A stretch of 64,000 nucleotides of DNA from a virus. Location of the stretch: the IMG/VR virus record IMGVR_UViG_3300012582_000005, positions 1 through 64,000 of that record; one strand, given 5' to 3'. The notes under the pieces are model-generated. The model ran no database searches, had not been told where the DNA came from, and was given only the letters and a program-made list of their open reading frames with translations. Each line of letters starts with the position of its first letter. The stretch's first letter is position 1. A program made the position numbers and the translations under genes. Below are positions 4,302 through 41,972 of the stretch, one piece after another.

Positions 4302-4303
4302 AA

Positions 4304-17344: not shown

Positions 17345-18418
17345 ATGAAAAAAACAAAAGTAAGAACATATTCAGAAAATTATGATGAAAATCTTTTGAA
17401 AATGTACATGGAAGCAGGTTTTAACTATGGTATGAAGCTTGAAAATGGATCGGTTGTAGAAGGTGTATTGTTGGGACAAACAAATAGCCATATCTTAGTA
17501 GATATTGGTTATAAAGATTGTGTTCTTATTGATATAAAAAGAGATGAATATTTAGCGTTAGAAAAGTTAGGTAAAACTGTTGGTGATACTACAGAAGTAA
17601 TGATTATTAATGTTACGGAAGATCCATATCTTATTATGGGTAGTTTTACACAGTTAAATAGAAAAGACGCTTTTGCTGAAATTTTAGAAAATGCTGATAG
17701 AACAATTTTTGTATCTAAAGTAATGGAGTGGTCTCCAGCAGGATTTAAATTGGACATCACTTATGATGAACATAAAGTTCCAGCATTTATGCCGAATACG
17801 TTAGCGGGTATTAATAAATTATCACCAGAACAATCACAGGAATTAATAGGAAAGGAAATTCAAGTAATGATTGAGTCTTTTTCAGATGATAGAGGCACTT
17901 TTATTGCAAGTAGAAAAAAATATCTACAAACATTAATTCCTACAGCATTAGATAATTTAAAAATCAAAAATGATGATGGTACTTACGCACTTCTTACTGG
18001 TACAGTAACAGGTACAACTAAATCAAGTGTGTTTGTAGAATTTAATGAATGTTTAACAGGTATGATTCACATTTCAAATTTAGAATCTTCCGTTGCATCT
18101 AAAATAGACAATGTTAAACCAGGTGATTCAATTAACTTCTATGTAAAAGAAGTAATTAAAGGGAAACTATTCTTAACACAAGTTATTAGAGTATCTGCGT
18201 GGGATTCTGTCACCAAAGATGATATCTTTTCTAATGTTAAAATTAAAGATGTTAAGAAATTTGGAGTATTGGTTCAAATTGATCAAGAAACTGTTGGTTT
18301 GATTTCTAATAATGAATTAGAAAAATCTAAAAAAACATTCAAAGTTGGAGATTCGGTAAATGTGAAAGTTACTTATATTCAAAGAATGGAAAGAAAATTG
18401 AGCTTATCAATTGTCTAA
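17345..18418 (+). CDS. Ribosomal protein S1-like protein with four S1 (OB) domains
   Basis: There are four S1-type repeats, for example GSVVEGVLLGQTNSHILVDIG, GTVTGTTKSSVFVEFNECLTGMIHISNL and VKIKDVKKFGVLVQIDQETVGLISNNEL...VGDSVNVKV. Confidence 0.75.
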   Translation: MKKTKVRTYSENYDENLLKMYMEAGFNYGMKLENGSVVEGVLLGQTNSHILVDIGYKDCVLIDIKRDEYLALEKLGKTVGDTTEVMIINVTEDPYLIMGSFTQLNRKDAFAEILENADRTIFVSKVMEWSPAGFKLDITYDEHKVPAFMPNTLAGINKLSPEQSQELIGKEIQVMIESFSDDRGTFIASRKKYLQTLIPTALDNLKIKNDDGTYALLTGTVTGTTKSSVFVEFNECLTGMIHISNLESSVASKIDNVKPGDSINFYVKEVIKGKLFLTQVIRVSAWDSVTKDDIFSNVKIKDVKKFGVLVQIDQETVGLISNNELEKSKKTFKVGDSVNVKVTYIQRMERKLSLSIV

Positions 18419-19725: not shown

Positions 19726-19768
19726 TAATATCAAATAAAATAGAAATTATATGTCTTAGAATTGATAA

Positions 19769-19797
19769 AAAAGGTAGCTTGTAGACTACCTTTTTTA
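19769..19797 (+). terminator. Intrinsic terminator-like hairpin
   Basis: A-run, GGTAG, loop, CTACC, then TTTTTT. Confidence 0.45.
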
Positions 19798-19834
19798 TTT
19801 AAAAGACTCTTAAATAGTAAAAAGAATGTTGTAA

Positions 19835-19847
19835 AATAATATATAAC
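19835..19847 (+). promoter_or_regulatory. Late-promoter-like element
   Basis: AATAATATATAAC lies 18 nt before the TTG start of the giant ORF. Confidence 0.3.
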
Positions 19848-19865: not shown

Positions 19866-22800
19866 TTGGCCAATAGTGTTAAATTACTGAATTACTTAGA
19901 TCCGCAGGACAATTACTTAAGATTTTACACTGAATTAGATTCTGATTTCGAAGTTGGTGATAAAGTGTTCATTATTGGTGGTAATTATGACAATACATTT
20001 TATACAGATAAAACTCATAATGGATTTAATCCATTTCATCAATATGCTGCTGGATATGTAATTTTAGATGTTGATCAAACAACTGTTTCTAATGCTATCA
20101 CATTAAATATTAAGTTTAGTGATGCTACATTTAATTCAGGTGGTATACAAACATTGATTTTTGATCCTAAACCTGTGTATAAAACAGAGATTGAATTATT
20201 ATTAGAACCTAATCAGGTAAGAGAGGCTTATATATCAAAGACATATTTTAAAAGAGGTGAATTTAATGGTGGTAAATTCCAAGATGGTATTTTTGGAGAA
20301 TATAACATTAAAGGTACTCACGATTCAAATAAAGTATATCAAAGACAACATTTTGTTGATTTATTACGTGCTACATCTGTTGTAGCAAATGATATAGTTA
20401 CAGTTAATGCTATCGATGCTTATGATTATACTACATTGGAAACGCCTGTAAATAACAATAGAACTAAATTCAATAACAATTTTGATAATACACCTGCTGA
20501 ATGGACAGGTGGTATATTTTTAGGAGGTGATTTTCAATGGGGTGAATGGAAATCTAAAAATAGTGATACTAAATCAGGTAAATTACAAAAACTCAATGAT
20601 GATTTTGGTATTAAAAATATATTAGATAATTCTAAATATGATATTGAAACATTCACTGATAATAATAATGGTGTTGGATATAATCAATTTATATCTGGTA
20701 ATTTTGCTAGAATATATTCGGGAAATTTAGAAATAGATTTTGATGTAATCAATAAAGAAATAATTTTCACAACAGTTCCTTATGTAATATCAAAAGCATT
20801 TGAAAATGGTTTTGATATTCAATTAAAAATAAAATCATCCATTAAAAATAGTAGAATATTTGATGTTGTATATAATGGTTCTAATGCTTTAGTATTGAGT
20901 GAATATCAAATATTTGATAATGATTTTACATTAGAGCAAGAATTATATTCTGAAACACAAGCATTTCATGATATAGAAATTTATGCTAAAGATAAAGTAG
21001 GAAAACCAGTTAGATTCTCTACAGGTAGAGTACTTTCTGCTGATTGGTTTGGTGGAGTGTTTGAAAAAGGTAGTTTTGAAGGTGGTGATTGGTATTGGGG
21101 TGAATTTAAAACAGGTACTATATCTACATCATATCAAACATCTAATTGGTGGGATGGTGTATTTAATGGTTCTGTAGATGAATCTTATGCTGAAAATCTT
21201 AGATGGTATAATGGTAATTGGGTGAATGGTAATTGGAAAGGTGATAGTAAAATTTCAGTTGAATCTATTATATATGATAATAGTGGATATATTAAAATTG
21301 ATGTTCATACGAGATATAAACATTTATTTAAAATAGGTGAAAAGACATTTTTATCGTATTTTAAGAAAGGTATTACAAATTCATATTTAGAAAATTATAC
21401 TGATGTAATTAATGATTATGTAATTAATTTTCAAACATTTAATTTAATTGATATTATTGAAGATAGTGCTAATAAAGCATTATTTAAAGTTACTCTACTA
21501 TTACAAGGTAACTTAAATCCATCTATTCTTAAAGATATTAATTTACAGTATGCTAAAGTAAGTCAATCACATTTTAAAAAAGGTATTTGGAGAAATGGTA
21601 TTTGGGAATCTGGTTTAAGAGAAGTTCAAAATTATAAAATTACTGATTTTGATGCTGGTACTAATTTCTTGCCTAATAAACAAATGCAGTTAACTATTAA
21701 TACTATTGATAATTTAAAAGTTGGTGATAAAATTGAAATTACAAATTTTAATTTAGTAAGAGATATTGATATTGAATATTTAGAAGATGTTGTATCTACA
21801 AACGATAATAGACTTGATCAAGAATATTTTCAAAGTTTGGATTTAACTCTTACTGTTATTAATATTACATCAGGAACAGCAGGAAATAATGTTATTGTTA
21901 GATTCCCAATAAATTCTACTACAGGTGATATAGATTTACCAGAAATTAGCAAGGATAATTTAGCATGGTTTACTGATGATGGATTGAAAAGAATAGATTT
22001 AATTAATATAGAGAATGGTAAAACTGAGCTAGCAACATGTTTATGGATGAATGGTGAATTTAGAAGTGGTGCTTGGAGAGGTGGTTTATGGAAAAACGGA
22101 ATATTGTCAAATTTATTATATTTTGATAATGTTAATACACAAATACAATCTGTATGGCAATCTGGATATTGGAAAAATGGTACATTTACTAACGGTGCAT
22201 TTTTATCAGGTGTATGGCAAACAGGTGTATGGAAAAATGGTATCATGACAAATTTATTTGAAAATGATGATATAAATAGTGAAAATATTTATTCTGATGG
22301 TGATTCAGTTTGGATAGACGGTATATTTGAAAATGGTACTTGGAGAAGAGGATTATTCTTAGAAGGGAAATTCCTTAATGGTACGATTATTAATGGTGGT
22401 ATCAATTCAATTGAGTGGACAAAAGGACAATATACTAATGGGTTTGGTGAATATGTAAAAACAAATAATATAAATAAAACTGGTAGATTTATAGATAGTA
22501 AGAATGAATATGATACATTATCAGCACCATCATTAATTTATATTGATAGAGATGGTTGGACACAATTAGATCAACCCTCATTTTATCAAAAAGGATATAA
22601 TATAATTTTTCAAGATTTAGATTTACATGGTAATAATCCATTCAACAATCAAATGTTTAGTGTTCAGAATCGTGATATGTATGGTTCTAAACTTAAAATT
22701 GTTGATTCTACATCAGGTGATAACCCATTATTAAATTCACTATCATTACCAATAATAGCAACCGATAATATTGTTGATATTGTTGAAATGGGAACATCTG

Positions 22801-25800
22801 GAAATATATGGATAGCAGATAGTGGTAATAAAAGGATTCTTGAAGTAAATCAAAATACAGGCTTAGTAGATGTATTAGGAAAAGTTATAGGTGATTCAAT
22901 AAAAGATAAATTTGATTTTTCTAATATTAAATTTATGTTTAAAGGAACAGCATTTGTTTATGTTGTAGATGGAAGTACTGTTAAGTTAATTAATGAAGAT
23001 AAAGATATTATAATAACACAAACACCTGGTTTAGCATTGGGTGAAGAGATTGTTGATATGTGGGTAGCTTCTCAAAATCAAGTATTGAATGAAGTTGTAT
23101 ATCTTCTTACTAATTTAGGTAAAATATATTACTGGGTTCCTATGTGGAGCTCATTCAAGAGTTTAATAGCATTATCTTACACAGTTGATGTTCCTGTGTC
23201 ATTTGTTGGTGTTAGACCTGATCAAAGCTCAAGAACTCACTTATTATTAAATACTCTTAATAATGGCATATCAAAATTAAAATATGCAGTATTGGATTAT
23301 TCATTTAGTAATTTGACATATACAATGACATCAATCGTTGATACTGTAATTACTTTTAAAAATGATACTGTGGAAGGAACAGATATTAATAAGATTGAAA
23401 AAGTAACTGCATCATACGTAAGTGGTAAATTCAATGTATGGTTATTGTCATCTAAATATGATTCATCTGTACAAAATATTTATAGAGCACCGTATGATTT
23501 CACATTAAATTTATTCGATTTTGATGCTGAAAAATTAAATAGTAATGAATTAGATTATCCTGTTGATAGATTTAGATTGGGATTAAATAGTGAGCATTTG
23601 ACAATTATTGGTAAAAAAGATACATATAATGTATTTTTCTCTAAAGCTAAAATAGCTAAAAGTGAGTTTGGTTTGGGTAATCCATCATCTACAATTAAAT
23701 TGTTTGATATACATCAAAATCTTACCGATAATGTTAAATATTGGATTTATGACGATGAGCCAAAAAGTAAGAGGATATTATACATCACTGAAGGTAATGA
23801 TCCTGAAAATTTCTATAATAGCGAATTATCTGATACAATAGAATCTGATGTTGATGTAATTCAATTAATACCAGGTGAATCTACAAATATTGTATATGCT
23901 ATAATTAAAAGAAGTACAGTAACTTCTGAAGAATATAAAATAAGAAAAGTTGATAATAGTAAGATAGATAGTGAAAATAGTATAGAAAATGATACAACGT
24001 TCACATTCAGTTCTATTTATGATGGTGTATTTATAAAAGATACTTTGTATATAATTGCAAATGATGGTAGTGGTGTTAAAGTATTTAATGTTGATACAAA
24101 TCTCGTTGTTTCATTAACAACATTTTCAACAAGTTTTAGTGTATTTACTGGTACAGGATTTAGAATGCATGGTGTAGAAGATGGTAGTGATATTATCTTA
24201 ATGATTTATGAAAAAGGCATCAATAAAGTATGGGAAGCTAGAGTAAATTCTATTATTACTAATATATTCTTCTTATCATCAACTTTAAATGGTGTGATTG
24301 ATATAGCAGTTGCTAAATCACCATCTTATGTACATTTATATTTAGCATATGCAAATAAAGTAGTAATGTCTATTTCAGATAAAAGTGTAGCGGGACATTA
24401 TTCATGGACAGAAAACATTAAAGATATTGTTTATAATGGTAGTGGTATTGAAGAAATTGTAAAAACAGAATTTAATAAAATAGTTGTTAAATATGGTATT
24501 GATTTTGATATTTTTGATATTGACTACACAAGTACAGATAAAACTATTGAAGAGGCTGTATTAAATGGAACTAATTTTTGGGCTATTTCAAATAATACTA
24601 TTTTAAAGGTAAATAATTCATCGACTGGTGCGGATACTTATGAAGTATTACAAGGTAAATATAGACAAATTTCTAGACCACATGTATTTGCAGCATCAGT
24701 AAATAATAATGATAATGTTTTAGGAAAACCTAAATCAATAATACATGCACCTTCATTTGGTGGTGGAAGCTACATATATTTTATAGATGAATTCTCAGGA
24801 TCATCTTCATATAATATAATTAGAAGAATAAATACTTCAACTAATGCTACATCAATAGAAAACTTTGGTTCTGATAAAACTAAGTACATATTAGATTTAT
24901 CTTATGATATAGCTAATAATAGACTTTATGTTTTATATAGAAGTGGATCTGATACTAAAATTGGATATTTATCAACAGTTGATGGCAGTATAACAAATGG
25001 TAATACTTTTGTTGCAAATACAACAATAAGGAAAATTAGTGTTATGAATGATAGTGGTACTATTTATGTTGCGATGCTTTATGTGTTGTTGGATGGAACA
25101 AGCCAAATAATAATTTATAATACATTTTATTCAATATTTAACACATTAAATATACCTTCTATAGTATCTGATATTAGTTTTATTATTAATAACTCATCTA
25201 TATCAAACAAGTATCAAATATTTTTTGTTAATGCTGATAAAAATTTGAATTTATTTTCCAATAATGCACTTACTGGTACATGGACTAAAAAATCAATGGG
25301 ATTATCAGTTAATACAATTAATGAAAAATTAGATACAAACGATTTAATTTATGTTGATGGTAGTCAAACTATAAATTATATTAAAACTACAGGTGATACA
25401 TCAGAAGATAGATTATCTGTTAAAGATATGGCTTTTTATAAATTGGTATCGCCAGAATCAATATTTTTCTATAATTTACCTCAAATTGGTAGTAGCGGTA
25501 TTACTAGAGAATCTATACCATCGAACTTAAGTGATGGTATAGATTTATCATTAACAACACAAATAGATAATGATATAAGTGTTAATTCATCATCATTTAA
25601 AAAAATGGTAGCAATATCGAGTGATGTTGTATATGCTATGTTTGATAATAGTATTTATGAATATAATTTCAATGCTGTATCATTAACTAATTTAGTTGCA
25701 CCTGTACTCGAATATAGAAATTCTCTTGATCAAACACCAGTTGGTATAAATAGTATCTATCACCATAAAGCTATTGATATAGCTGTTGTTAATGGTGATT

Positions 25801-28800
25801 TAATAACTATTTTTGAAATAGTAGATACTTTAAATAATGGTACAGGTAAATATAATATTTTTAGATATATCGGAACAGATTTTGTTAATATAGATTATTT
25901 ATATTATAGTTTAACAGAATCAATTGCAGAAGATGGTGGAACTAATGGTGAAGTATTCCCTATGGGAACTGGTGGTATTAAATATTTATTTAATTCTGTC
26001 ATAGAGCCTAAAATAGCAGGGAAAACAGAGACTACTGATAGTGATACATCAGAAAGCATTTACATATACATGAAAGAATCAATTTCATCATCTGAAATAT
26101 TCTTAAAAGTTATTCAAAAAGTGGGTATTGATATAATTCAAAATTCACAATTTGCTGATTTAGTATTTTTATTAAATATACCTGGTTTTGATTCTTCTAT
26201 AGAAACTCTTACAACAGCTTATATAACACCTAATCCGTTAGGTGGTTCAACACCATTAGCATCAACATCATTTGTAAATGTTTATGATTCTGTACCTGTT
26301 TCTGATACTCAGAAAATGTATGTAATATTTGAAAAACCAATTGGTCAATTATTTCAGATAGATACTAATTATACAATAAGTGTTAAATTTGATAGTAATA
26401 TAGCTACAAATCCACCATCATATACAGACGTATATGATTTTAGAGTATATAAAAATAACTCTTCTGATGAATTATTAATTAGAGAAAATGGTACTAATTT
26501 TCCTATTAATACAGTAATAGATGTACTTAATAATGGATTTTGGGAATTAGTTAGAACACAAGAAGGTAAATGGGTAGTAGATAACATGGATGCTATAATT
26601 TCACCAACTCTTACTGATGGTGATGATTTAGAAATTCGTTCTTTAATTAAGGCGAGTAATTTTACAGTTATAGAACTTGATATTGTAATAACAAATAATA
26701 ATACTATACAACTTGATTTATTGATTTTACCAGCACTTGATAAATCATATCATTTCGATTCATTCAATGGTATTGATAGAGGTTATAAAGTAATTAATAC
26801 CCGCGGCAATCAAGTATTATCTCCTTATGTAACAGGTAGAGTATTATTTGAAACTATTGTTAATACCGATGTATCATTTAACGCTAATGGTACTGCTGAA
26901 TCTGGACACGTTGTTTCTACAAGATGGAAGAATGGTTTATTTATTGGTTCATGGGATGCACCTCGATATTTAAATTATAATATAATTACTAAATATTCAG
27001 TATTTATTAGTGGTATATTTGAAGGTAAATTCTATGATGGTTTCTTTTTAGGTGGTACATTTAGAAACCCTGTTAATTCAGAGTCTATATTACTACAAGG
27101 CCATTTCATGTCTGACGGTGCTAATATTAATTGGGAGTCTGGTAAAGTTCAATCTGATTATCGTTATGATATTCATAATATTAAGTGGGACGATGTTAAT
27201 AATGGTATATTAAAAGTTTTAGTACAAGGATTAACATATGACGGTGATGATTATATACCACAAACACCTACTCAAATAGCATCAGGTTCATTGGTTCAGA
27301 TACCAACATTATTTAAGAAAAATGAAATTGCGATTGAAAAAATCACAAGAGGTAAAATTTCTATAGTGAGTGGAAAAGATGAAATAATATTAAAAGTTTT
27401 AGCACCAGAGTATTACGATGAAAAATTATGGGTTAATAATAATATATTTATAAGCTCTTCAAATTATACGGAATATCTCTTTGGTGAATTTATAGTTAAC
27501 CATTCATATGTAAGTGATGGATTTTTATATCTTATCATAAACTCTAAATTTAATGCGTTTGATGTTAATGGTGAATACGAACCATTAATTAAGCCTAAAT
27601 TACTAATTGCGTTCTATAATAAAATTATATCTAAAACGGATTATACTGATGGTTTTACAGAATTTGAAATAGCTCTTCCTGTTCCAAGTAACATAATTAA
27701 CACACTTAATACTTATTCCGACAAATTGAGATTAGTTAAATCATATTATATAAATGATAATATAGATGTATTATTGTATGGTAATTTTGTTGGAGATTTT
27801 ATAATTCCAAATTATTTACAAATGTTTGCATTTACATTTAATAAAACATATAATGATGTTATATTAAGATTTAATTCAAAAGCTACTAATTTATATTTAA
27901 ATAATATTATAAGTGATAATAACACATCGTATGTTTCTGTTGATTTGAATACATCTTCAGCATCTTTATTTGCAATAGATGTAATGGTTAAAAATTCATA
28001 TTTAACATCATCTAATGTTAATAATTGGATAGAAGAAAGTATTTTCTTATCAGGTAAAACTGATAGAAGATGGGTATCTGGTGCATGGTTAAATATTGAT
28101 GATAAAGGTTTCTCTAATGGTAAATCGCAGTTTGGTGATTCGACTATAATGCCATTATTTGATGGTGAGCCTACAAAAGTAATTGACATTGCATTCGAAA
28201 GTAGAGAATATATTTGGATTCAATTAGAAAATTTAATACAAAATGTTGATAAACATAGATATATTACATTAAGAGGATTTACTGGTAATAAATCTAATTT
28301 AATTGGTTCTACACGATCTAAAGTATTTAGAATAGAAGAAGTGGATTCATATTGGATTAAAATTAAAAATCCATTTAAATATTATTATGGTTTAAATTCT
28401 ACAAATTCATCACCATATTTGAAAGATTTTAATGTTGATGAATTACAAATTCAAAAACAAACAATGTCTTTAAAAGCACTTACTACTTCTTCTATTGATG
28501 CTAAAATTGATACGGGTGGAACAAATTTCATATTTGAATACGGTTGGGCATCAGTTTCATCATGGAATGGTGGCGACTTCTATGGTGATTTTAATTCTAT
28601 TTGGAATGCTGGTAATTTCAGAGATGGTAATTTTAATGGTAAATGGTTTGGTAGTCCAGAATCTTCTAACTGGCAAGGTGAGATACAATTAAATAGAGAT
28701 GATTTGGGTAATAAATTCTTACTTACAATAAGAGGGTTGAACGGAATTGTTAGAGAGAAGGATTTGATATACATTAAATTTAATTCAATTTTTAATAACA

Positions 28801-31800
28801 TTGAATTAGTTGATGTTTTAGAAGGTTTTTATAGTGATGTTCAATATGATGGTACTAGTGGTAATTTAATAGCTGAGTATACAACTAATATTTATTTAGA
28901 AGAAGGTAACTATCCAGTAAATATTACAAGATATAGAGTGGATTATAAAAATTCTGATGTTTATACATTAGAAGATAATACATTAATTGTTGATTATAAT
29001 GTCAATTTAGCATCAACTAATGATGTAAATATGCATACGTTAATGGATAAAAATATCGGAGCAACATCAGGTGGTTTAGTAATTAATTTTAATGGTGATA
29101 ATAGTATTGCAACAGGTGATTTAGTTGATTTGGCATTAAATACTGGTAGTGTAGGTGAAATGACTGTTGATTTAGCATTTAAATATAATACTTTGTTGGA
29201 AGGTGATAGGAGTTCTATATTTGGTTTTCATAATACTGAAACTGTACAAAGAACAGGATTTAAATTATACATTAAAAAAGATGGTGGTATAGATAAAATA
29301 TATTTAGAATATCAAAAAGATAAAGGGGCTGTAACTATAGAGTTAGAACACGGTGGTTTAACTAGCGGAACATGGAATAATATCTCATTATTCGTAAATA
29401 ATAGCACTGCATCATCATCACTTAAATATATTGTTAATTCATATTATAATACCAAAGATATTTCAACATGGGATTCTTTTGTAGATAATGTTAATTATGA
29501 TTTAAATTTAATTGGTCAATGCGTATTTGGATTATCTAATAATATAGTAAGTAATTTCTTAATTGGTCAATTGGATGAAATTAGAATTTGGAATAAAGAT
29601 ATGTATGATTATTTCTTATCTCCACATTTATTTCAAAATAAAAGATTTATAAATGGTTATATACCTCAAATTGTAGCATACTTTAGTGGTGAAAACTATG
29701 ATATTGATAATGCTAAATATTATCCTAAAGAAGAAAATTATTTTGCTTTTGATAATGAATTTAAAAAAGTTGATACTTTGTCATTTACTAAAGTTAATAA
29801 TGCTATCTATGAATTTGATATGTTAACACAAAGTAGAAATGGTGCATTTAAAATTATAGCTATAGAAGAAGAGAGGTTTGTTGAATCGGGAGTATCAGGA
29901 TTTAAATATATTGTTGAATTATTTGGTATTGATAATGATGCGTCATCTTCTGGTAGAAAAGGAACATTTAGTTTTAAATATAAAGAAACCATAGTTTCTG
30001 GAAACAATGTAGTTGCGGGCAGAGAAAATTACTATTCAATTCCTTGTGAAATAGAATATTGGAAATGGCATAATGTAATAATAACCGAAAATGGTATTTA
30101 TATTAATGGTATTGTTATACCAGAATCGAAAATTTCATTTAGAAATAGAGATATATTTAAACAAACAGTTAAAGTTAGAGTATCTTTAGGTGATAGTTCT
30201 TACTCACCCACTTCTAAATATGATACAGTTGCAGCGCTTTATGTAAATGGCGTTCAACCAACATATTTAAGAGGTTTCATAAAGAATGTAAATATATTTG
30301 AAAACAATAATACTAAAGAAGATTATATCATCTATAGAATTATATCACCAGAGGATATAACAAATTTCTCTGTTTCGGAGTCGTTTGGAACTTCTGGTAA
30401 TAGAATTATATCTAATAATATATCAGCATCTACTTCATCATTAATTGAAATACCTTATTTTAATAATGATGGTTCTATGAGTTGGGAACATTATATTTAT
30501 ACAACTGAAAATTATTATAAAAGTTCGGTATCAGGAGATGAAATAATTTATAACAAAGATATTAGAGATAGTGGATCTATTATTTCATCTGACTTTGATG
30601 ATAGTTTAAGATTTATTGATACGGATAAAATTTCAACAGCTTTACCAAGTTCTACTTGGCTAGAAGGAACTGACTTTATAACAGTTGGAAATATGTTAGA
30701 CGATTTCTCAACTGTTTTAACAATATCTAATATGTCAAATTTTGAATTATTTGGTAAGAAATTTGCTGATACTTCGGGTAATGCTAAAATGAGAATATCA
30801 ACAAATGGTATTATGACACTCGTTGATGATCCATTGATTGCTACTCAAAACTACTTCAATGCTTATAGTATGAATGACGTACCATTCGTTGATTATAGAT
30901 ATAAATATATAAGCTCTATTGATATTATATACATGTTGTTTACTGATTTATATCCACCTGCTACTGGTTCTAAATGGGAAATAGCAGATAGAGAAGATGA
31001 AGTTATACTTAGATATTATGTTACTTTATATAATGATAGTTATAATTCAACTGTGGTTAATGGTGTTGTGAGAAACAGTGGTTCGACACCACCATATCCT
31101 ACTATACAATCAAACTTTAATTATTTTGCAATAAGACTTGATAAAATAAATTCAAATATTTTATTTTATAATAGAAGAATTAAAAATGATCCTTCACATC
31201 AAAAAATTCAAGGTATTAGAAGAAGTGATGCTACATGGAATTATGTAAATGATTTAAATAGATTTAGATATTATAAATATAAAAATACAGATAATGATTA
31301 CATAGTAGGATATGATGATAGTATTTTAAATGTTAATCATCCTTCAACTAATACAAATAGTAAAATTGTATATGAAAGTAAGAATACTGAGTATATTCTC
31401 TACGTGCCACGTATTGTAACACATGATGATAATAATTTTATTGGTAAAATAATAACTAAAGACTATGATTATTTGACTTCTAATTTAAATATAAAATTAA
31501 TTACATCATATAATAACAGTAAAGTTGGAAGTGTGATGTATGATTATGTATATGATTCAGCAAGAATAATAAATGATTATTATATAATTAATACAGTTGA
31601 AGGTAATGAAGGTACAGATTTTATTCAATATGGTAGTACAAGCTTTATACCATTGTCTTATACTTTCTCAGAACAATTTAATTTAAATCAATCTGATATT
31701 AATGTTTCAAGAAATTCATTTTTCTACGGTGGTAAATTTAATTCAAAAGTATGGTATAATGGAATTTTAGTGAGTGGAAATATAAATCTTGATGGTATAA

Positions 31801-34460
31801 CAAGTTCTATATGGAAATATGGTATTAAACATAATGGTTCTATATCTTCTGATAAATTATTACCAGTTTATACACATTTACATTGGTTAGGTGGATTCCA
31901 TATTGGTAATCCTACAAGTATTGTTAAAAATATTATTTGGTATCGTGGATACTGGAGAGGTGGTGTATGGAATGGTGGAAACTGGTTATCATTGAGTCTT
32001 AATAATCAATATACTTCTGATGATTGGTCGGTGTGGAATAAAGGTGAGTGGTATTCTAAATTTAATTTTAGAGTAGTTAGAGTTGCTACAACTATAGCAT
32101 TTGCAACAGGATTGCCTATAATTGATGGTGTTCTTGTTAAAGAAGGTGATAAAGTATTAATTAAAAATAATGGTATGTATACAGCAAGTGCTATTAAATG
32201 GATTAAAGACGCATCTATAACTGATTACACAAATACTGTGGTGTTTGTATCTGAAGGAATTATTGAAAAAAGTAATACTTATATTTTCACAAAACCTACA
32301 ATAACAACATTATATACTACACACTATAATCCTTCTATATGGCATGGGGGTACTTGGAATTCTGATTTAATTGGTGATAAAGAATTTACTTATCAAAGTA
32401 ATGAATATAAATTTTATAATTTGAATGATGGTAAACAAATAGAATTACCTGTTGTAAATTCAATTTGGTTAGGTGGTGAATGGTTAAGAGGTGTATGGAA
32501 TGGTGGTATATTTGCTAATGGTACTTGGCACTCTGCATCTGCTGCCACATCTGGTTTAATTGGATATGAAATAGATCTTGGATATAAATATCATAAATCA
32601 TTTTCTTTATGGAATAGTGGTATGATGATAAATTCTATATGGGAGGGTGGTGTAGTAAATTCAAATACTTCTAATTTGGAAACTGTATTTGGTGATATTA
32701 CAAATTTTGATATTATCACACCAGGTAGTGATTTCGTTTGGGATTCAACTAAATTTAAATTTAAATTATCTAATAATTCAACAACGATTTTAGGTAAAAA
32801 AGTATTTGATTTTAATAAAGATACACTAACAGTATCCAATTCTAAAAATAGAGTGTTGAGTCAATTTAATAATGACGGTATATTGTCTGTTTATTGGAAA
32901 AGAGGTGAATGGAGTAATGGTATATTCCAATTCTCATATTGGGATAATAAAAGTATTAATAATGTAGATTTGGGAATTATTTCTGAATCAGGAAATGAAT
33001 CTATGTTTGATAACGGTTGTTTCTATTCATCTTATTGGAAAGGGGGATTATGGAACAATAGATCATCAAATAATACCACAAATTCATCTACGATAATTCC
33101 TAATAGTTTATTCTATCGTTCACAGTGGGAAAAAGGTTATTGGAAGGCTGATGGTTTAACAGGTACTACAGATAACATCGAAATTACTGACGGTATATTT
33201 TCACGTTCTGTTTGGAATGCTGGTGTGTGGGAAGGTGGATTATTTGACTTGTCTGTTTGGAGAAGTGGTGTATCATCAAATACAAATTTAACATACAAAG
33301 GAACAACTTTAGCTCTTACTACAACAATAACTGGTAAAAATTATACATTTGCTGTAAATCATGCTAATATTCCTACAACTATGATAGGTGATCCAACAAC
33401 ATTAACATATAATAATGATAGTACATTTATTACAAATATTGATAATATAATAAGTACTAAGAGTTTGAGATATTTGGGTGGTGTAGACAATCTTGCATCT
33501 GTTTGGGTTAATGGTTGGATGCGTGGCTCTGTGTGGCATGGTGGTGTATGGCAAAGAGGTATGTTTTCACATAAAGAAATAACAAGCATAGATTCATTTG
33601 ATTTCTTTGATGATGGTGAAAATAATAAAATTTCACTTGGTGTGTGGGTTAGAGGATTGTGGCTATCTGGATATTTCTCATACTATAATGATAAGAATGT
33701 TATTGGACAATCACCATCATATGGGACAACATACGAATATTTAAATGAAACGAATGGTCATAGATGTTTATTTATGGGTATTAAAGCAAATGCTTATACT
33801 AGCGAAGGTGATTGGGATTTAGATAATATGTTTGGTATATCTAAAGCTAAATTGGATTTTGAATTAAGTAGTGTAAATTTGGCAATAAATAATATAGCGT
33901 CATTATTTGGTAAAGCAATGATAAAAAGTGGTTCTACTAGATATTTCTCTATTTTCAATGGTACATTCGTTAATGGTGCATTGTTTGATGATAATACCAA
34001 TGTTAATGATTCTAATAGACCAGTATTATCAATATTTGCATCAATTGGTAAATACTTTTATAAAAATAATACAACTGGTGAGATTTCAATCGATGGTGTT
34101 AGTGATAAATTTGTTAATGAAATTAAGGTAACTAAAACAGATAAATTGATGTCGTTGTTTATACCATATGATTTATCATATCCTATTTATAATGATGGTG
34201 GAGTTTGGAAAAATATTACAAGTACCAACGCATCAGTTTTAACATATTTAAATAGTTTCTATAATGGTCATTATGCAGTATCTTCGGTTGACTGGGTTAA
34301 GAGTATATGGAGACATAACCACTCTATAATAGGTGATGGTGGAACTATTCCATCTATATTACAAGGAGTTGGATATAAATGGAATCCTACTCAAACCAAT
34401 GTTGGTGAACCAAATTATTCGGATTTTACATCATTGGAATTAACAATTTACCGACCATAA
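19866..34460 (+). CDS. Giant 4864-aa putative virion (fibre/baseplate-associated?) protein
   Basis: Uninterrupted 14.6-kb ORF. The start must be TTG (in-frame stop at 19848, first Met about aa 605). It contains G-x-[WF]-x-x repeat blocks, an NHL-like motif and a LamG-like domain. Confidence 0.85.
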   Translation: MANSVKLLNYLDPQDNYLRFYTELDSDFEVGDKVFIIGGNYDNTFYTDKTHNGFNPFHQYAAGYVILDVDQTTVSNAITLNIKFSDATFNSGGIQTLIFDPKPVYKTEIELLLEPNQVREAYISKTYFKRGEFNGGKFQDGIFGEYNIKGTHDSNKVYQRQHFVDLLRATSVVANDIVTVNAIDAYDYTTLETPVNNNRTKFNNNFDNTPAEWTGGIFLGGDFQWGEWKSKNSDTKSGKLQKLNDDFGIKNILDNSKYDIETFTDNNNGVGYNQFISGNFARIYSGNLEIDFDVINKEIIFTTVPYVISKAFENGFDIQLKIKSSIKNSRIFDVVYNGSNALVLSEYQIFDNDFTLEQELYSETQAFHDIEIYAKDKVGKPVRFSTGRVLSADWFGGVFEKGSFEGGDWYWGEFKTGTISTSYQTSNWWDGVFNGSVDESYAENLRWYNGNWVNGNWKGDSKISVESIIYDNSGYIKIDVHTRYKHLFKIGEKTFLSYFKKGITNSYLENYTDVINDYVINFQTFNLIDIIEDSANKALFKVTLLLQGNLNPSILKDINLQYAKVSQSHFKKGIWRNGIWESGLREVQNYKITDFDAGTNFLPNKQMQLTINTIDNLKVGDKIEITNFNLVRDIDIEYLEDVVSTNDNRLDQEYFQSLDLTLTVINITSGTAGNNVIVRFPINSTTGDIDLPEISKDNLAWFTDDGLKRIDLINIENGKTELATCLWMNGEFRSGAWRGGLWKNGILSNLLYFDNVNTQIQSVWQSGYWKNGTFTNGAFLSGVWQTGVWKNGIMTNLFENDDINSENIYSDGDSVWIDGIFENGTWRRGLFLEGKFLNGTIINGGINSIEWTKGQYTNGFGEYVKTNNINKTGRFIDSKNEYDTLSAPSLIYIDRDGWTQLDQPSFYQKGYNIIFQDLDLHGNNPFNNQMFSVQNRDMYGSKLKIVDSTSGDNPLLNSLSLPIIATDNIVDIVEMGTSGNIWIADSGNKRILEVNQNTGLVDVLGKVIGDSIKDKFDFSNIKFMFKGTAFVYVVDGSTVKLINEDKDIIITQTPGLALGEEIVDMWVASQNQVLNEVVYLLTNLGKIYYWVPMWSSFKSLIALSYTVDVPVSFVGVRPDQSSRTHLLLNTLNNGISKLKYAVLDYSFSNLTYTMTSIVDTVITFKNDTVEGTDINKIEKVTASYVSGKFNVWLLSSKYDSSVQNIYRAPYDFTLNLFDFDAEKLNSNELDYPVDRFRLGLNSEHLTIIGKKDTYNVFFSKAKIAKSEFGLGNPSSTIKLFDIHQNLTDNVKYWIYDDEPKSKRILYITEGNDPENFYNSELSDTIESDVDVIQLIPGESTNIVYAIIKRSTVTSEEYKIRKVDNSKIDSENSIENDTTFTFSSIYDGVFIKDTLYIIANDGSGVKVFNVDTNLVVSLTTFSTSFSVFTGTGFRMHGVEDGSDIILMIYEKGINKVWEARVNSIITNIFFLSSTLNGVIDIAVAKSPSYVHLYLAYANKVVMSISDKSVAGHYSWTENIKDIVYNGSGIEEIVKTEFNKIVVKYGIDFDIFDIDYTSTDKTIEEAVLNGTNFWAISNNTILKVNNSSTGADTYEVLQGKYRQISRPHVFAASVNNNDNVLGKPKSIIHAPSFGGGSYIYFIDEFSGSSSYNIIRRINTSTNATSIENFGSDKTKYILDLSYDIANNRLYVLYRSGSDTKIGYLSTVDGSITNGNTFVANTTIRKISVMNDSGTIYVAMLYVLLDGTSQIIIYNTFYSIFNTLNIPSIVSDISFIINNSSISNKYQIFFVNADKNLNLFSNNALTGTWTKKSMGLSVNTINEKLDTNDLIYVDGSQTINYIKTTGDTSEDRLSVKDMAFYKLVSPESIFFYNLPQIGSSGITRESIPSNLSDGIDLSLTTQIDNDISVNSSSFKKMVAISSDVVYAMFDNSIYEYNFNAVSLTNLVAPVLEYRNSLDQTPVGINSIYHHKAIDIAVVNGDLITIFEIVDTLNNGTGKYNIFRYIGTDFVNIDYLYYSLTESIAEDGGTNGEVFPMGTGGIKYLFNSVIEPKIAGKTETTDSDTSESIYIYMKESISSSEIFLKVIQKVGIDIIQNSQFADLVFLLNIPGFDSSIETLTTAYITPNPLGGSTPLASTSFVNVYDSVPVSDTQKMYVIFEKPIGQLFQIDTNYTISVKFDSNIATNPPSYTDVYDFRVYKNNSSDELLIRENGTNFPINTVIDVLNNGFWELVRTQEGKWVVDNMDAIISPTLTDGDDLEIRSLIKASNFTVIELDIVITNNNTIQLDLLILPALDKSYHFDSFNGIDRGYKVINTRGNQVLSPYVTGRVLFETIVNTDVSFNANGTAESGHVVSTRWKNGLFIGSWDAPRYLNYNIITKYSVFISGIFEGKFYDGFFLGGTFRNPVNSESILLQGHFMSDGANINWESGKVQSDYRYDIHNIKWDDVNNGILKVLVQGLTYDGDDYIPQTPTQIASGSLVQIPTLFKKNEIAIEKITRGKISIVSGKDEIILKVLAPEYYDEKLWVNNNIFISSSNYTEYLFGEFIVNHSYVSDGFLYLIINSKFNAFDVNGEYEPLIKPKLLIAFYNKIISKTDYTDGFTEFEIALPVPSNIINTLNTYSDKLRLVKSYYINDNIDVLLYGNFVGDFIIPNYLQMFAFTFNKTYNDVILRFNSKATNLYLNNIISDNNTSYVSVDLNTSSASLFAIDVMVKNSYLTSSNVNNWIEESIFLSGKTDRRWVSGAWLNIDDKGFSNGKSQFGDSTIMPLFDGEPTKVIDIAFESREYIWIQLENLIQNVDKHRYITLRGFTGNKSNLIGSTRSKVFRIEEVDSYWIKIKNPFKYYYGLNSTNSSPYLKDFNVDELQIQKQTMSLKALTTSSIDAKIDTGGTNFIFEYGWASVSSWNGGDFYGDFNSIWNAGNFRDGNFNGKWFGSPESSNWQGEIQLNRDDLGNKFLLTIRGLNGIVREKDLIYIKFNSIFNNIELVDVLEGFYSDVQYDGTSGNLIAEYTTNIYLEEGNYPVNITRYRVDYKNSDVYTLEDNTLIVDYNVNLASTNDVNMHTLMDKNIGATSGGLVINFNGDNSIATGDLVDLALNTGSVGEMTVDLAFKYNTLLEGDRSSIFGFHNTETVQRTGFKLYIKKDGGIDKIYLEYQKDKGAVTIELEHGGLTSGTWNNISLFVNNSTASSSLKYIVNSYYNTKDISTWDSFVDNVNYDLNLIGQCVFGLSNNIVSNFLIGQLDEIRIWNKDMYDYFLSPHLFQNKRFINGYIPQIVAYFSGENYDIDNAKYYPKEENYFAFDNEFKKVDTLSFTKVNNAIYEFDMLTQSRNGAFKIIAIEEERFVESGVSGFKYIVELFGIDNDASSSGRKGTFSFKYKETIVSGNNVVAGRENYYSIPCEIEYWKWHNVIITENGIYINGIVIPESKISFRNRDIFKQTVKVRVSLGDSSYSPTSKYDTVAALYVNGVQPTYLRGFIKNVNIFENNNTKEDYIIYRIISPEDITNFSVSESFGTSGNRIISNNISASTSSLIEIPYFNNDGSMSWEHYIYTTENYYKSSVSGDEIIYNKDIRDSGSIISSDFDDSLRFIDTDKISTALPSSTWLEGTDFITVGNMLDDFSTVLTISNMSNFELFGKKFADTSGNAKMRISTNGIMTLVDDPLIATQNYFNAYSMNDVPFVDYRYKYISSIDIIYMLFTDLYPPATGSKWEIADREDEVILRYYVTLYNDSYNSTVVNGVVRNSGSTPPYPTIQSNFNYFAIRLDKINSNILFYNRRIKNDPSHQKIQGIRRSDATWNYVNDLNRFRYYKYKNTDNDYIVGYDDSILNVNHPSTNTNSKIVYESKNTEYILYVPRIVTHDDNNFIGKIITKDYDYLTSNLNIKLITSYNNSKVGSVMYDYVYDSARIINDYYIINTVEGNEGTDFIQYGSTSFIPLSYTFSEQFNLNQSDINVSRNSFFYGGKFNSKVWYNGILVSGNINLDGITSSIWKYGIKHNGSISSDKLLPVYTHLHWLGGFHIGNPTSIVKNIIWYRGYWRGGVWNGGNWLSLSLNNQYTSDDWSVWNKGEWYSKFNFRVVRVATTIAFATGLPIIDGVLVKEGDKVLIKNNGMYTASAIKWIKDASITDYTNTVVFVSEGIIEKSNTYIFTKPTITTLYTTHYNPSIWHGGTWNSDLIGDKEFTYQSNEYKFYNLNDGKQIELPVVNSIWLGGEWLRGVWNGGIFANGTWHSASAATSGLIGYEIDLGYKYHKSFSLWNSGMMINSIWEGGVVNSNTSNLETVFGDITNFDIITPGSDFVWDSTKFKFKLSNNSTTILGKKVFDFNKDTLTVSNSKNRVLSQFNNDGILSVYWKRGEWSNGIFQFSYWDNKSINNVDLGIISESGNESMFDNGCFYSSYWKGGLWNNRSSNNTTNSSTIIPNSLFYRSQWEKGYWKADGLTGTTDNIEITDGIFSRSVWNAGVWEGGLFDLSVWRSGVSSNTNLTYKGTTLALTTTITGKNYTFAVNHANIPTTMIGDPTTLTYNNDSTFITNIDNIISTKSLRYLGGVDNLASVWVNGWMRGSVWHGGVWQRGMFSHKEITSIDSFDFFDDGENNKISLGVWVRGLWLSGYFSYYNDKNVIGQSPSYGTTYEYLNETNGHRCLFMGIKANAYTSEGDWDLDNMFGISKAKLDFELSSVNLAINNIASLFGKAMIKSGSTRYFSIFNGTFVNGALFDDNTNVNDSNRPVLSIFASIGKYFYKNNTTGEISIDGVSDKFVNEIKVTKTDKLMSLFIPYDLSYPIYNDGGVWKNITSTNASVLTYLNSFYNGHYAVSSVDWVKSIWRHNHSIIGDGGTIPSILQGVGYKWNPTQTNVGEPNYSDFTSLELTIYRP
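21040..22450 (+). repeat. N-terminal cluster of Trp/Phe-centred five-residue peptide repeats (coding)
   Basis: Examples are WFGGVFEKGSFEGGDWYWGEFKTG, WYNGNWVNGNWKG and GYWKN GTFTN GAFLS GVWQT GVWKN GIMTN. Confidence 0.6.
22800..22847 (+). other. NHL-repeat-like motif inside the giant ORF
   Basis: GNIWIADSGNKRILEV matches the NHL core (iyVaDsgNhRI). Confidence 0.45.
29115..29600 (+). other. LamG/concanavalin-A-like lectin domain inside the giant ORF
   Basis: The segment ...TWNNISLFVN...LIGQLDEIRIWNKD has the typical Laminin_G_3 ending (dEvRiwn). Confidence 0.5.
31720..33690 (+). repeat. C-terminal cluster of Trp/Phe-centred five-residue peptide repeats (coding)
   Basis: Examples are IIWYRGYWRGGVWNGGNW, SIWLGGEWLRGVWNGGIFANGTW, SVWNAGVWEGGLF and SVWVNGWMRGSVWHGGVWQRGMF. 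Confidence 0.6.
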
Positions 34461-34471
34461 AATATATAAAT
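34459..34471 (+). promoter_or_regulatory. Late-promoter-like element
   Basis: AAAATATATAAAT lies 5 nt before ATG 34477. Confidence 0.3.
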
Positions 34472-34476
34472 AGGAT

Positions 34477-36258
34477 ATGAATAAAGGGATAATTAGAAGT
34501 TCAGAAAATATTAATGAAATTGCAGATTTCATTCTATCGAAATGGGATGTTAGATATAATAGTAAAACTTATCTTGATGTGGAATTAATTTTTAATTCTA
34601 ATTTAGATAGTATTTTTGCTGATTATAATTATATTAATTCTACATCTGGTTATAATGCTTTAAATGTTTATATAAGAGAAGCTACTAATATTAGTGCAAC
34701 AGAAATTCAATTAATTAAAAATGGAAATACATATTCTACATCTAATGTAAATGGTGATGTTGCAAATACATATACTATTAGCTCTGCTAAAAATAGTTTG
34801 AGATTTAATTATAGCCCGTCAACTTTTTTAACAGAAATTGCATATACTATTATAATTAGATTAAATGAAGGTATTATTGATTTTGAAAGAGATTTTACAT
34901 TCAACATTTCAAATTCATATTATGCTGATGCTAATGGTAAAAAAACTTTTACTATATCACCAATAACAATACCAACACCATCTAATAGTACATTAGATAT
35001 TAGTTTAGCATCATCATCAATACCCGTAAAATTACATGCTTATGCTATACAATCAGATGATACCATTAAATTTACTATACAAAATAAAACTGATGGTATT
35101 ATAAGTAGTGGTTCACCAACAACAATAAATAATTCGAGTGGAAGCCCTATTTATACAACTACACCAACACATTATGGATATACTTATGATTCAACTGCTA
35201 ATTTTCCATTTACTATTTCACCATTAGCACAAAAACCAATTTTTACTATAGACTCAAGTAAAAAACTTAAAGTGTATGTTATAAAAACATCAGAATCATT
35301 TAATATTAATTATACATATTTAACATGTCATTCTAATATTAATATAGATTCAACAAATTTAGCAGAGTATCAATCTACATCAGGATCGTATACTGTATAC
35401 ATACCTGTTATGAATGATGTTAATGATACAATGAGTGTAATATTTAAAGATAGCGGAAATGTGTCGAATAAACTTTCAAGCAATAGCGGAAGTTTTAATG
35501 CTACAGTTATTACATCCCCAATTACAATGACAAGTGGTACATTCACATTTACTGTTAATTATGATTTAGTTCCATTAGCAACTAATGGTTCTGCGTGGGG
35601 TGTTATTGAAATAAAAAATTCAACTAATGATATTATACTTACAAAACCATTGAATTATACTGTAGCACAAAACACTACACCCATAGTTAATACATTCACT
35701 GTTTCATCACCTGTTTATAATAGTACATATTTTAGTGGAGATTTAGTAACTTTTACATCAACTGCAACAGATGTTGATGGTACAATTTCATCAATAAAGT
35801 TATATAAGGGTGGTATTTATACTGGTGATTCTGATAATACTTCACCATATCAAATAGTTCACACTTTACCATCAGCAGGAACATATTCATATACAGCAAG
35901 AGCGGTTGATAATTTGGGTGAAGAAGGAATTAATTATTCACCACCAATATCAATAACTACAGTAACTAATTTACCACCTAATTCGGCAGTAATGTCAGAT
36001 CCATCAGGTGCAGGAACATGGGGTTCTGCTGGACAATCACTTACGTTTTCAGCTACGGCTACGGATATTGATGATGGTATTAATTATGTCGAATTCTTTG
36101 TAGATAGTATTTCTATAGGAAATGGTGTTTATTTATCTGGTAGTACTTATACAAAAGGTTGGATAGGTATTATAGGAGTACATACTGTAAAAATAACTGT
36201 GTATGATAATCACGGGTTATTTTTAATGAGTTCAACTGTTAGTTTTACTATAACATAA
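34477..36258 (+). CDS. Putative fibre/adhesin protein with two C-terminal Ig-like domains
   Basis: The tandem blocks ...GDLVTFTSTATDVDGTISSIKLY...YSYTARAVDNLG and ...GQSLTFSATATDIDDGINYVEFF...HTVKITVYDNHG are bacterial Ig-like repeats. Confidence 0.6.
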   Translation: MNKGIIRSSENINEIADFILSKWDVRYNSKTYLDVELIFNSNLDSIFADYNYINSTSGYNALNVYIREATNISATEIQLIKNGNTYSTSNVNGDVANTYTISSAKNSLRFNYSPSTFLTEIAYTIIIRLNEGIIDFERDFTFNISNSYYADANGKKTFTISPITIPTPSNSTLDISLASSSIPVKLHAYAIQSDDTIKFTIQNKTDGIISSGSPTTINNSSGSPIYTTTPTHYGYTYDSTANFPFTISPLAQKPIFTIDSSKKLKVYVIKTSESFNINYTYLTCHSNINIDSTNLAEYQSTSGSYTVYIPVMNDVNDTMSVIFKDSGNVSNKLSSNSGSFNATVITSPITMTSGTFTFTVNYDLVPLATNGSAWGVIEIKNSTNDIILTKPLNYTVAQNTTPIVNTFTVSSPVYNSTYFSGDLVTFTSTATDVDGTISSIKLYKGGIYTGDSDNTSPYQIVHTLPSAGTYSYTARAVDNLGEEGINYSPPISITTVTNLPPNSAVMSDPSGAGTWGSAGQSLTFSATATDIDDGINYVEFFVDSISIGNGVYLSGSTYTKGWIGIIGVHTVKITVYDNHGLFLMSSTVSFTIT

Positions 36259-38810: not shown

Positions 38811-38842
38811 TTTGCTTTTCTGTAATATTGTTTGTAAATTTG
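38811..38842 (+). promoter_or_regulatory. Bacteroidota-type promoter
   Basis: TTTG (38811-38814), N20, TAAATTTG (38835-38842), 37 nt before ATG 38879. Confidence 0.45.
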
Positions 38843-38878
38843 TATTGTTATTCAAATTCAATTAAATTAAAGCAAAAT

Positions 38879-41826: not shown

Positions 41827-41903
41827 GGGCCCTTAGCACAATTGGTGGTGCAACTGTCTCATACACAGGTGGTTGGTTTTGGGTTCGAATCCCCCAGGGC
41901 CCA
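41827..41903 (+). tRNA. tRNA with CAT anticodon (elongator Met or Ile2-type), 77 nt
   Basis: Hand fold: perfect 7-bp acceptor stem GGGCCCT/AGGGCCC, D arm GCAC-AATTGGTG-GTGC, anticodon loop CTCATAC and T loop TTCGAAT. The 9-nt variable region and two T:C mismatches in the T stem are atypical. No CCA is encoded. Confidence 0.7.
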
Positions 41904-41972
41904 CAATAGCCTTAAAAGTTATATGTATTAAACATAGCTAACAATTTTTATATATACTAAAAAAAGTATATA

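Follow-up and report, generated by a model that had tools for sequence, protein, structure and literature searches.

Concanavalin-fold lectin domains are known on the tail fibres and other virion components of jumbo phages (PMC7824862), and some jumbo phages carry elaborate or capsid-borne fibres (PMC13282480). The huge phages of Bacteroidota have not been cultured, and their means of host finding are not known. Herein, we analysed a window of 64,000 nucleotides (nt), positions 1 to 64,000 of the IMG/VR virus record IMGVR_UViG_3300012582_000005, in which a single giant open reading frame (ORF) of 4864 amino acids (aa) spans 14,595 bases (22.8%). We lean towards the view that the encoded protein serves a huge myovirus-type phage as an adhesion fibre that is attached to the virion, most likely at the tail or baseplate, and binds sugars. 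This reading fits the lectin domains and fibres known from jumbo phages. A role in a virion fibre is suggested by the collar genes that lie downstream of the giant gene in four relatives, by its Ig-like neighbour, by a promoter-like box common to the tail sheath gene, and by the lack of a signal peptide.

The giant ORF is a genuine gene. At the base composition of the window (27% GC), the stop-codon frequency is ~0.085 per codon, and the probability of 4864 open codons by chance is ~1e-187. The ORF is open under the standard code, and stop-codon recoding of the kind found in Lak phages is not needed. The GC content within the gene (0.26-0.30) equals that of its flanks. The start is backed by the orthologues, which have ATG at the equivalent site and open with MANSVKLLNY, MSNSCRLLNY or MANATKLLNN. 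A repeat scan found no long DNA repeats within the gene and only a weak 15-nt periodic similarity, which is due to the five-residue repeat of the protein. The residue composition comprises 3.1% A, 6.9% L and 4.2% E, with 9.9% N, 9.4% S, 7.4% G and 2.1% W. We looked for a signal peptide, a membrane segment and a type IX secretion system (T9SS) C-terminal domain in the giant and found none of them. Two antisense ORFs inside the gene, 21830-22246 (-) and 22292-22537 (-), are similar by BLAST to antisense ORFs of the related loci L004 and L010-L012; most simply, they are shadows of the conserved pentad-coding plus strand and not genes.

An exhaustive HMMER search with aa 930-2129 as the query found four orthologues that align at the same position as the giant: P0005 (4791 aa, 54% identity), P0006 (5169 aa, 35%), P0007 (5104 aa, 30%) and P0008 (5230 aa, 28%). 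A fifth, from a metagenome scan, is L009 on JACCDZ010041414.1 (at least 4844 aa). The orthologue contigs derive from different samples. All six sequences, the giant included, are colinear end to end at pairwise identities of 31-58%, which indicates that the whole architecture of 4.8-5.2k aa is under selection. The gene order of L043 is that of the window: UVR-motif protein, S1 protein, AAA ATPase, giant, a 594-aa Ig-like protein, a small reverse gene, primase and sigma factor. A preliminary description of this DNA, made from the sequence alone, had reported an ORF uninterrupted over 14.6 kb, about 23% of the window, and our count agrees. It had also allowed for a chimera or an interruption in the real genome; the five further uninterrupted colinear orthologues, from independent assemblies, exclude an assembly chimera. 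Its term "exceptionally large" is apt in comparison with known phage fibres, but within the orthologue group this size is the conserved norm (4791-5230 aa).

Conservation is uneven along the chain. The mean pairwise identity is 59% in the N-terminal domain, 45-63% in the pentad segments and 29-36% in the globular parts, and 69 of the 102 tryptophans of the giant are aromatic in every aligned orthologue. The central region, aa 951-2330, could not be aligned by BLAST to L010-L012 despite colinear flanks; it behaves as an exchangeable cassette that appears to have been replaced in these loci. A diversity-generating retroelement was rejected as the source of variability, as the repeat scan gave no near-identical direct repeat pair fit for a template and a variable repeat.

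Some relatives differ in how the gene is divided. The complete 3379-aa ORF of L012 covers only the N-terminal two thirds of the giant, and the 1716-aa ORF of L007 corresponds to giant aa 3392-4851 with stop codons upstream. In L005 (JACCDR010730903.1), an in-frame TGA at nt 10-12 of giant-homologous sequence ('*SQIWEHYIY' vs 'GSMSWEHYIY') lies 85 nt ahead of the called TTG start of P0004; it could reflect a recent gene split, read-through, recoding or a contig-end error. Together these three loci suggest that the giant may equal two or more genes in some relatives, and low coverage or contig-end errors are also possible there.

The N-terminal domain is the best-conserved part of the giant and defines a family. 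It also heads shorter proteins: P0001 (1874 aa), P0003 (999 aa) and a 1591-aa ORF of LR745206. P0001 adjoins a primase orthologue, the syntenic position, and the LR745206 ORF lies downstream of the same UVR-motif and S1 genes. Queried with an alignment of this domain, IMG/VR gave 33 loci on contigs of 45-508 kb and 25-35% GC; the alignment was needed, for a single-sequence query of aa 1-1200 gave nothing, and scans with the C-terminal module found nothing. The proteins at the 33 loci range from 849 to more than 3470 aa, are most often 1700-2300 aa long and are all rich in [WFY]xxG; many of these loci have a further W-repeat ORF, 1100-1500 aa long, behind the first. We defined the family by the N-terminal domain (KLLNY..YTELD..GDKVFIIGGNYDN) together with 2-5 [WFY]xxG units per 100 aa, a description that covers the giant, P0001, P0003, P0005-P0008, the LR745206 ORF and the ORFs at the 33 loci. 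No relatives were found in 185,579 bacterial and archaeal species, one genome each, and the family appears to be phage-only.

Searches beyond the family returned little. Megablast of 25 kb against phages gave no match, and tblastn of both giant halves against 50,697 phage records gave repeat-level matches only, or none. A word-indexed protein search gave no match for aa 2401-3950, and exact-sequence look-ups of the giant and its downstream neighbour gave no database record. No named family in Pfam, PHROGs, the PDB or annotated phage records covers the giant, and a literature search found no paper describing it. A modular lectin-bearing phage appendage is, as a kind of thing, already known; the novelty lies in a size that is conserved, a W-pentad scaffold whose insertion points are fixed, and a phage-only family of N-terminal domains.

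The five-residue aromatic repeat is the most regular feature of the chain. The giant contains 118 [WFY]xxG units compared with 48 +/- 6.6 in shuffles, an enrichment of 2.5 times. Units most often follow one another at a distance of exactly 5 (33 cases), and 17 chains of 2-6 pentads occur. We called five-periodicity by a window score calibrated on shuffles, and 11 segments scored above the 99.9th percentile, in total 763 aa or 15.7% of the giant; these lie within aa 109-865, 2365-2418 and 3944-4576. In the first of these regions the runs fall at aa 109-157, 199-242, 375-461, 551-604 and 708-865, and the orthologue identity is 45%, rising to 50-71% at aa 690-930. The pentad segments are the slowest-evolving parts after the N-terminal domain, and the short internal run at aa 2890-2935 has 52-80% identity among orthologues (mean 63%). 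The repeats of G-x-[WF]-x-x type, which the preliminary description saw dominating both ends, are present at both ends, but "dominated" overstates 15.7% of a protein in which they alternate with non-repeat inserts.

Comparison with known folds gave a weak match for one stretch. A PDB profile search with aa 690-930 gave five best matches that all have the pentapeptide-repeat fold, including 6fls (E 0.0034), 2w7z and the SV2C luminal domain, and the alignment places W/F in the central hydrophobic position and G in the small position two residues earlier. This match was not reproduced by a longer profile or by the C-terminal repeat region, for which the PDB search gave a weak second match to the toxin B CROP beta-solenoid (E 3.4). 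Pfam Pentapeptide models gave no match to the giant at E<=5, the consensus here being [WFY]xxGx and not A(D/N)LXX, and Pfam MORN models gave none either. We consider the pentad runs likely to form an aromatic-ladder beta-solenoid kind of structure.

Domains of other kinds are set between the repeats (Table 1). In the central region, the NHL-like motif proposed earlier is present at aa 977-991. Pfam NHL (PF01436) scores 13.6-14.2 bits in the giant and 16.8 bits in P0005, below the cut-off of 20. In a phmmer search of a 1.84-billion-protein library, ~65 proteins matched aa ~974-1004 only, each through many repeats of its own; all 10 of those scanned are NHL-repeat proteins by Pfam (E 1e-27 to 1e-114). 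In addition, an orthologue profile matched the Pizza6 designer NHL-type propellers in the PDB (E 0.003-0.009). The plural "propellers" of the preliminary description did not hold: with an iterated hidden Markov model (HMM) of the blade, each orthologue yielded a single copy, and the remainder of aa 951-2330 is beta-like by eye.

The other earlier proposal, a LamG-like domain ending in LDEIRIWNKD, was confirmed through orthologues. In the colinear segments, Pfam Laminin_G_3 (PF13385, cut-off 27.6) scores 40.1 bits in L009 and 37.1 bits in L044; L045 (25.5) and L046 (19.1) fall below the cut-off, and P0005 has no match. The giant itself, searched whole or in 541-aa pieces, gave no match at E<=5, and its membership thus follows by orthology and not directly. 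The hallmark columns, including G..DEIRIWN, are kept among the orthologues, and the domain makes up ~5% of the chain. The picture of a modular, beta-rich protein with modules of a carbohydrate-binding type therefore stands, with LamG assigned via the orthologues. P-domains are present in IMG/VR family members.

In P0007 and P0008 (loci L045 and L046), BNR/Asp-box and Reg_prop modules are inserted into the C-terminal repeat region, and it is because of such insertions that the length of this region varies. The insertions comprise a BNR/Asp-box propeller of ~300 aa and a unit of ~160 aa, and they interrupt pentad runs opposite giant aa ~3990-4010 and ~4222, sites at which the giant itself lacks any such domain. 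Domains inserted in the middle of a run suggest that the repeat scaffold tolerates insertion at defined points.

Structure prediction added limited detail. The AlphaFold2 (AF2) model of the C-terminal 915 aa, built with P0004, had a predicted local distance difference test (pLDDT) score of 26.5 and was unusable; that of aa 2890-3560, built with four orthologues, had a mean pLDDT of 43.8. Foldseek with this low-confidence model returned legume lectins and neurexin LNS at E 0.15-0.4; a phage 'LamG domain containing protein' came out at E 1.5e-6, but its template modelling (TM) score was ~0.1. These results are suggestive: they are consistent with lectin-type sandwiches and viral fibre proteins, and are not proof. 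PDB sequence searches gave nothing useful with the whole giant or with the LamG segment, alone or as a three-sequence profile, and the profile of aa 2401-4864 gave no significant PDB match.

Table 1. Parts of the giant ORF and adjacent features (positions in the window; identities are mean values among orthologues)
Feature	Residues	Position	Strand	Remarks
Terminator-like hairpin		19764..19799	+	A-tract, stem, T-tract; between the AAA ATPase gene and the giant
AATATATAA promoter-like box		19838..19846	+	19 nt upstream of the giant start codon
Giant ORF	1-4864	19866..34460	+	~550 kDa, isoelectric point 4.9, TTG start, no in-frame stop
N-terminal family-defining domain	1-108	19866..20189	+	KLLNY..FYTELD..VGDKVFIIGGNYDN..GY.IL.V; putative attachment domain
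N-terminal pentad-rich region	109-865	20190..22460	+	runs alternating with small inserts
Conserved linker	866-950	22461..22715	+	SAPSLIYIDGDGWVQLDQPSFYQKGYNIIFQDL..NPFNNQM; pairwise identity 58%
Beta-rich central region	951-2330	22716..26855	+	fast-evolving, pairwise identity 31%; propeller-like by pattern only
Single NHL-like propeller blade	966-1008	22761..22889	+	..GNIWIADSGNKRILEVNQNTGLVDVLGK..; kept in all six orthologues
Internal pentad segment	2331-2420	26856..27125	+	identity 53%
Region of unknown fold	2421-2889	27126..28532	+	identity 42%; orthologue length 465 to 624 aa; no family or PDB match
Internal pentad segment	2890-2935	28533..28670	+	FEYGWASVSSWNGGDFYGDFNSIWNAGNFRDGNFNGKWFGS; length invariant, 46 aa
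Small beta domain	2936-3040	28671..28985	+	sole AF2 model part with pLDDT 60-79; no named fold assignable
LamG / concanavalin A-like lectin domain	3041-3300	28986..29765	+	ending ..GQLDEIRIWNKD; via orthologues
Second LamG-like beta-sandwich candidate	3301-3560	29766..30545	+	W.WHNVIITENGIYINGIVI ... RGFIKNVNIFENN; motif pattern and orthologue conservation; no Pfam match in any orthologue; model pLDDT 50-65
Region of unknown fold	3561-3943	30546..31694	+	common to P0004, L006, L007; no family match
C-terminal pentad-rich region	3944-4576	31695..33593	+	identity 47%; orthologue length 579 to 980 aa
C-terminal domain	4577-4864	33594..34457	+	least conserved, pairwise identity 29%; candidate distal tip; no family or PDB match
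Second AATATATAA box		34461..34469	+	directly after the giant stop, 7 nt before the next gene
593-aa protein with Ig-like repeats		34477..36258	+	starts 16 nt after the giant stop
Sigma-70-family factor		38118-38711		

If the giant is an adhesion fibre, it would be a single-chain virion appendage of ~550 kDa that recognises host or environmental glycans. The N-terminal ~108 aa, being the sole part common to the whole family, would anchor it to the particle. The [W/F/Y]-x-x-G-x runs, whose periodicity and conservation we observed, would fold into a rigid beta-solenoid-type scaffold with an aromatic ladder. Globular modules would interrupt this scaffold at fixed points and do the binding; the candidates are the central region with its NHL blade, the LamG/concanavalin A-like lectin, the second LamG-like candidate and the variable C-terminal tip. 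The scaffold and anchor are constrained and the binding modules diverge or are exchanged, which may be read as the pattern of a host-range determinant. Transcription would start from the promoter-like box also found at the tail sheath gene, presumably with corresponding timing. The partners of the giant may be the Ig-like protein encoded downstream and, in relatives, a collar fibre protein resembling gp12/gp10.

The region upstream of the gene carries signals of its own. The hairpin has a predicted RNA fold of -15 kcal/mol (z -5.5), and none of 200 shuffles was as stable; a simple terminator scan omits it because its T-run belongs to the stem. It separates the AAA ATPase gene from the giant, which thus appears to own its transcription signals. 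The preliminary description had placed a late-promoter-like element ahead of the giant, and a promoter-like element is indeed there: the AATATATAA box also precedes the tail sheath gene and is kept in orthologues. The total of 13 copies in the window equals chance, but 7 of the 13 lie 3-23 nt upstream of a same-strand ORF start, among them the starts of the tail sheath gene and of the gene downstream of the giant. At similar spacing it precedes the tail sheath gene (8345) and ORF 16143 (16116). Boxes of the form AATATATAA or ATATATA[AT], at 5941, 8345, 16116, 19838 and 34461 (+) and at 36726 and 47861 (-), stand 3-28 nt upstream of start codons, and looser forms occur upstream of many other genes of the window. 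In most orthologous loci an ATATATA[AC] box lies 18-28 nt upstream of the giant (L043, L044, L045, L010 and L011), and the rest of the spacer is not conserved; an equivalent box precedes the downstream gene in L043, L044, L045, L046 and L005. We regard the AATATATAA box as a candidate promoter specific to the phage; it recalls the T4 late TATAAATA.

Downstream, the spacing of 16 nt to an Ig-domain protein was as described earlier. The Ig nature of the neighbour is weak here (PKD E 0.006, below threshold), and its syntenic 594-aa orthologue in L043 matches Pfam Big_7; the 593-aa protein is probably a partner of the giant. In L005, a protein of the 258-319 aa class directly follows the orthologue and matches Pfam Collar (E 3e-16) and, weakly, Gp10_C. 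Homologues of this protein directly follow the orthologue in L006, L009 and L044, and all have HxH-rich C-termini. In L009, the collar gene is followed by a 380-aa ORF with weak similarity to the N-terminus of the 593-aa protein of the window. Upstream of the family gene stands a conserved pair of plus-strand genes, here the UVR-motif protein (16810-17220) and the S1 protein (17345-18418); the pair is also found in L004, L011, L012, L014, L020, L023-L025, L036, L038, L043 and L044.

Several observations weigh against a tail or baseplate fibre. The collar gene is absent from the window and from L043. The upstream neighbours of the giant are non-structural (UVR-motif, S1 RNA-binding and AAA ATPase proteins), primase and sigma factor genes lie just downstream, and the tail sheath gene is 8 kb upstream; the giant is thus outside the classical tail module. 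PHROG searches gave no tail-fibre family match, only phrog_17264 (aa 4071-4142, 32076-32291, within the C-terminal pentad-rich region) and phrog_12955, two families without a known function. In classical phage fibres three chains intertwine; the giant showed no trimerisation motif, and its recognisable modules (propeller blade, LamG, pentad runs) are single-chain folds. Given pLDDT values of 26.5 and 43.8, no structural claim is secure. Finally, the Tenacibaculum phages PTm1 and PTm5, relatives by tail sheath, carry capsid fibres (PMC13282480), so that the attachment site could be the head.

This last point leads to the alternative that survives best, although we judge it unlikely: a fibre that decorates the capsid or the length of the tail sheath, comparable to Hoc or to the PTm1/PTm5 head fibres, and not a receptor-binding fibre of the baseplate. 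Such a fibre would adhere loosely to mucus, particles or capsules and raise encounter rates without triggering infection. Its lectin and Ig-type content would be equally modular, with the Ig-like protein downstream as a partner; Flavobacteriia jumbo phages with the same sheath type (Tenacibaculum) have fibre-decorated capsids (PMC13282480), and the gene lies outside the baseplate module. On the other hand, a Collar/gp10_C-type protein, associated with baseplate fibres, directly follows in four relatives, and tblastn found no giant homologue in the PTm phages.

Less probable again is a non-virion protein made in the infected cell, such as a scaffold, a superinfection-exclusion protein or a surface-remodelling adhesin. 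The neighbouring genes for replication, transcription and RNA binding would suit it, and the window encodes a T9SS sorting domain protein (38828-40369), so the phage may send proteins to the host surface. However, the giant has no signal peptide, membrane segment or T9SS C-terminal domain; lectin-type modules and adjacency to collar genes are typical of virion fibres, and the promoter-like box is common to the tail sheath gene. Secretion of the giant was rejected for want of a signal peptide or T9SS domain. A protein kept inside the virion or ejected from it (tape-measure-like, inner-body or cargo) has size alone in its favour and is very improbable in view of the beta-type composition, the lectin and propeller-type modules and the lack of any enzymatic or coiled-coil family match; the tape-measure reading was rejected on composition. 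The chance that the ORF arose artefactually, by chimeric assembly or by separate genes being read together, is practically nil, since five other assemblies contain the same uninterrupted colinear ORF (4791-5230 aa), no long internal DNA repeats could cause mis-assembly and composition is uniform across the gene and its flanks, even if homologous sequence is possibly split in L012, L007 and L005.

Within the adhesion-fibre reading, a bolder version can be put forward tentatively, as a possibility that we would not expect to hold in full. The giant may be a single-polypeptide 'beads on a string' super-fibre, an undescribed host-recognition organelle. It would consist of a tryptophan-ladder shaft, a five-residue beta-solenoid, with fixed insertion points for interchangeable glycan binders of the NHL-type, LamG, BNR and P-domain kinds, and would have arisen by fusion of two consecutive genes of related huge phages into one chain of 4.8-5.2k aa.

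The remaining genes of the window help to place the phage. Besides a tail sheath and a gp32-type single-stranded DNA-binding protein, they encode a primase and a sigma factor, as well as an ATP-dependent ligase and an HNH endonuclease. The nearest tail sheaths are those of the uncultured huge phages LR745206 (634 kb), LR756500 (462 kb) and LR756501/3 (735 kb) and of Prevotella Lak phages; identity to LR745206 is 31% over the full length. The T4-like frame of the preliminary description was therefore abandoned in favour of these 460-735 kb uncultured phages and the Lak phages; judged by its sequence, the source belongs among the huge phages that are related to Lak phages. The sheath gene (8374-12012, +) encodes 1212 aa, which is unusually long, and the match to the PHROG sheath profile is confined to its first ~300 residues. 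The T9SS protein mentioned above (+, 513 aa) combines Reg_prop propeller repeats with a Por_Secre_tail (T9SS C-terminal sorting) domain; this domain points to a Bacteroidota host, and the phage may export the protein via the type IX secretion system of that host. A tRNA-Met (CAT) gene at 41827-41904 (+) is directly followed by the HNH endonuclease gene at 41973-42527 (+). On the minus strand, 49674-54776 holds three tandem paralogues of 575, 544 and 537 aa, without annotation, which share 70-78% DNA identity in blocks of 50-300 nt.

That 14.6 kb are kept intact across phages in which only a third of the gene's residues are shared indicates that the gene must matter to the virus. If the giant is an adhesion fibre, its variable lectin-type cassettes would be the obvious place to read host range from metagenomes and a starting point for host fishing with recombinant domains. 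The N-terminal domain would then be a practical family marker, found at 33 IMG/VR loci on huge-phage contigs and in none of the cellular genomes. The W-x-x-G-x scaffold with fixed insertion points would be of interest to protein engineers for display.

Among known systems, the giant shares features with myovirus fibres. T4 gp34/gp37 and gp12/gp10 and the branched fibres of the jumbo phage phiKp24 are likewise large, beta-rich and modular, with a conserved proximal end and variable distal binding parts. Myovirus fibre genes, like that of the giant in four relatives, adjoin genes for collar-domain fibres, and they readily fuse, split and exchange modules. The differences are that the giant has no sequence match to the tail-fibre families of Pfam, PHROGs or the PDB, is ~four times longer than gp34 (1289 aa; PMC5537660), consists of single-chain fold types with no recognisable intertwined trimeric repeats, and is encoded outside the tail gene cluster.

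Individual parts resemble other proteins. Pentapeptide-repeat proteins form a right-handed quadrilateral beta-helix. Those of the Qnr/MfpA type and SV2C have the same strict five-residue period, with a small residue two before the large hydrophobic one (G..W/F in the giant), whereas the giant has the consensus [W/F/Y]-x-x-G-x and interrupted runs of only 2-6 pentads. MORN units are 23 residues long, not 5. Phage MORN-like proteins also have short G/W-rich repeats, and giant aa 726-859 matches one of them by tblastn, the 'PIP5K-like' gp54 of Pseudomonas phage PspYZU05 (E 9e-9); unlike the giant, gp54 has 203 aa and is encoded in an early non-structural region. With NHL six-bladed beta-propellers the giant shares one blade that fits the consensus (aa 966-1008), the only recognisable one and below the cut-off. 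Finally, the concanavalin A-like / Laminin G3 lectin modules of jumbo phages (Iyer et al. 2021, PMC7824862) have a counterpart in the Laminin_G_3-type domain at aa ~3041-3300 of this putative fibre, which differs from them in being too diverged for direct detection and in making up such a small part of so long a chain.

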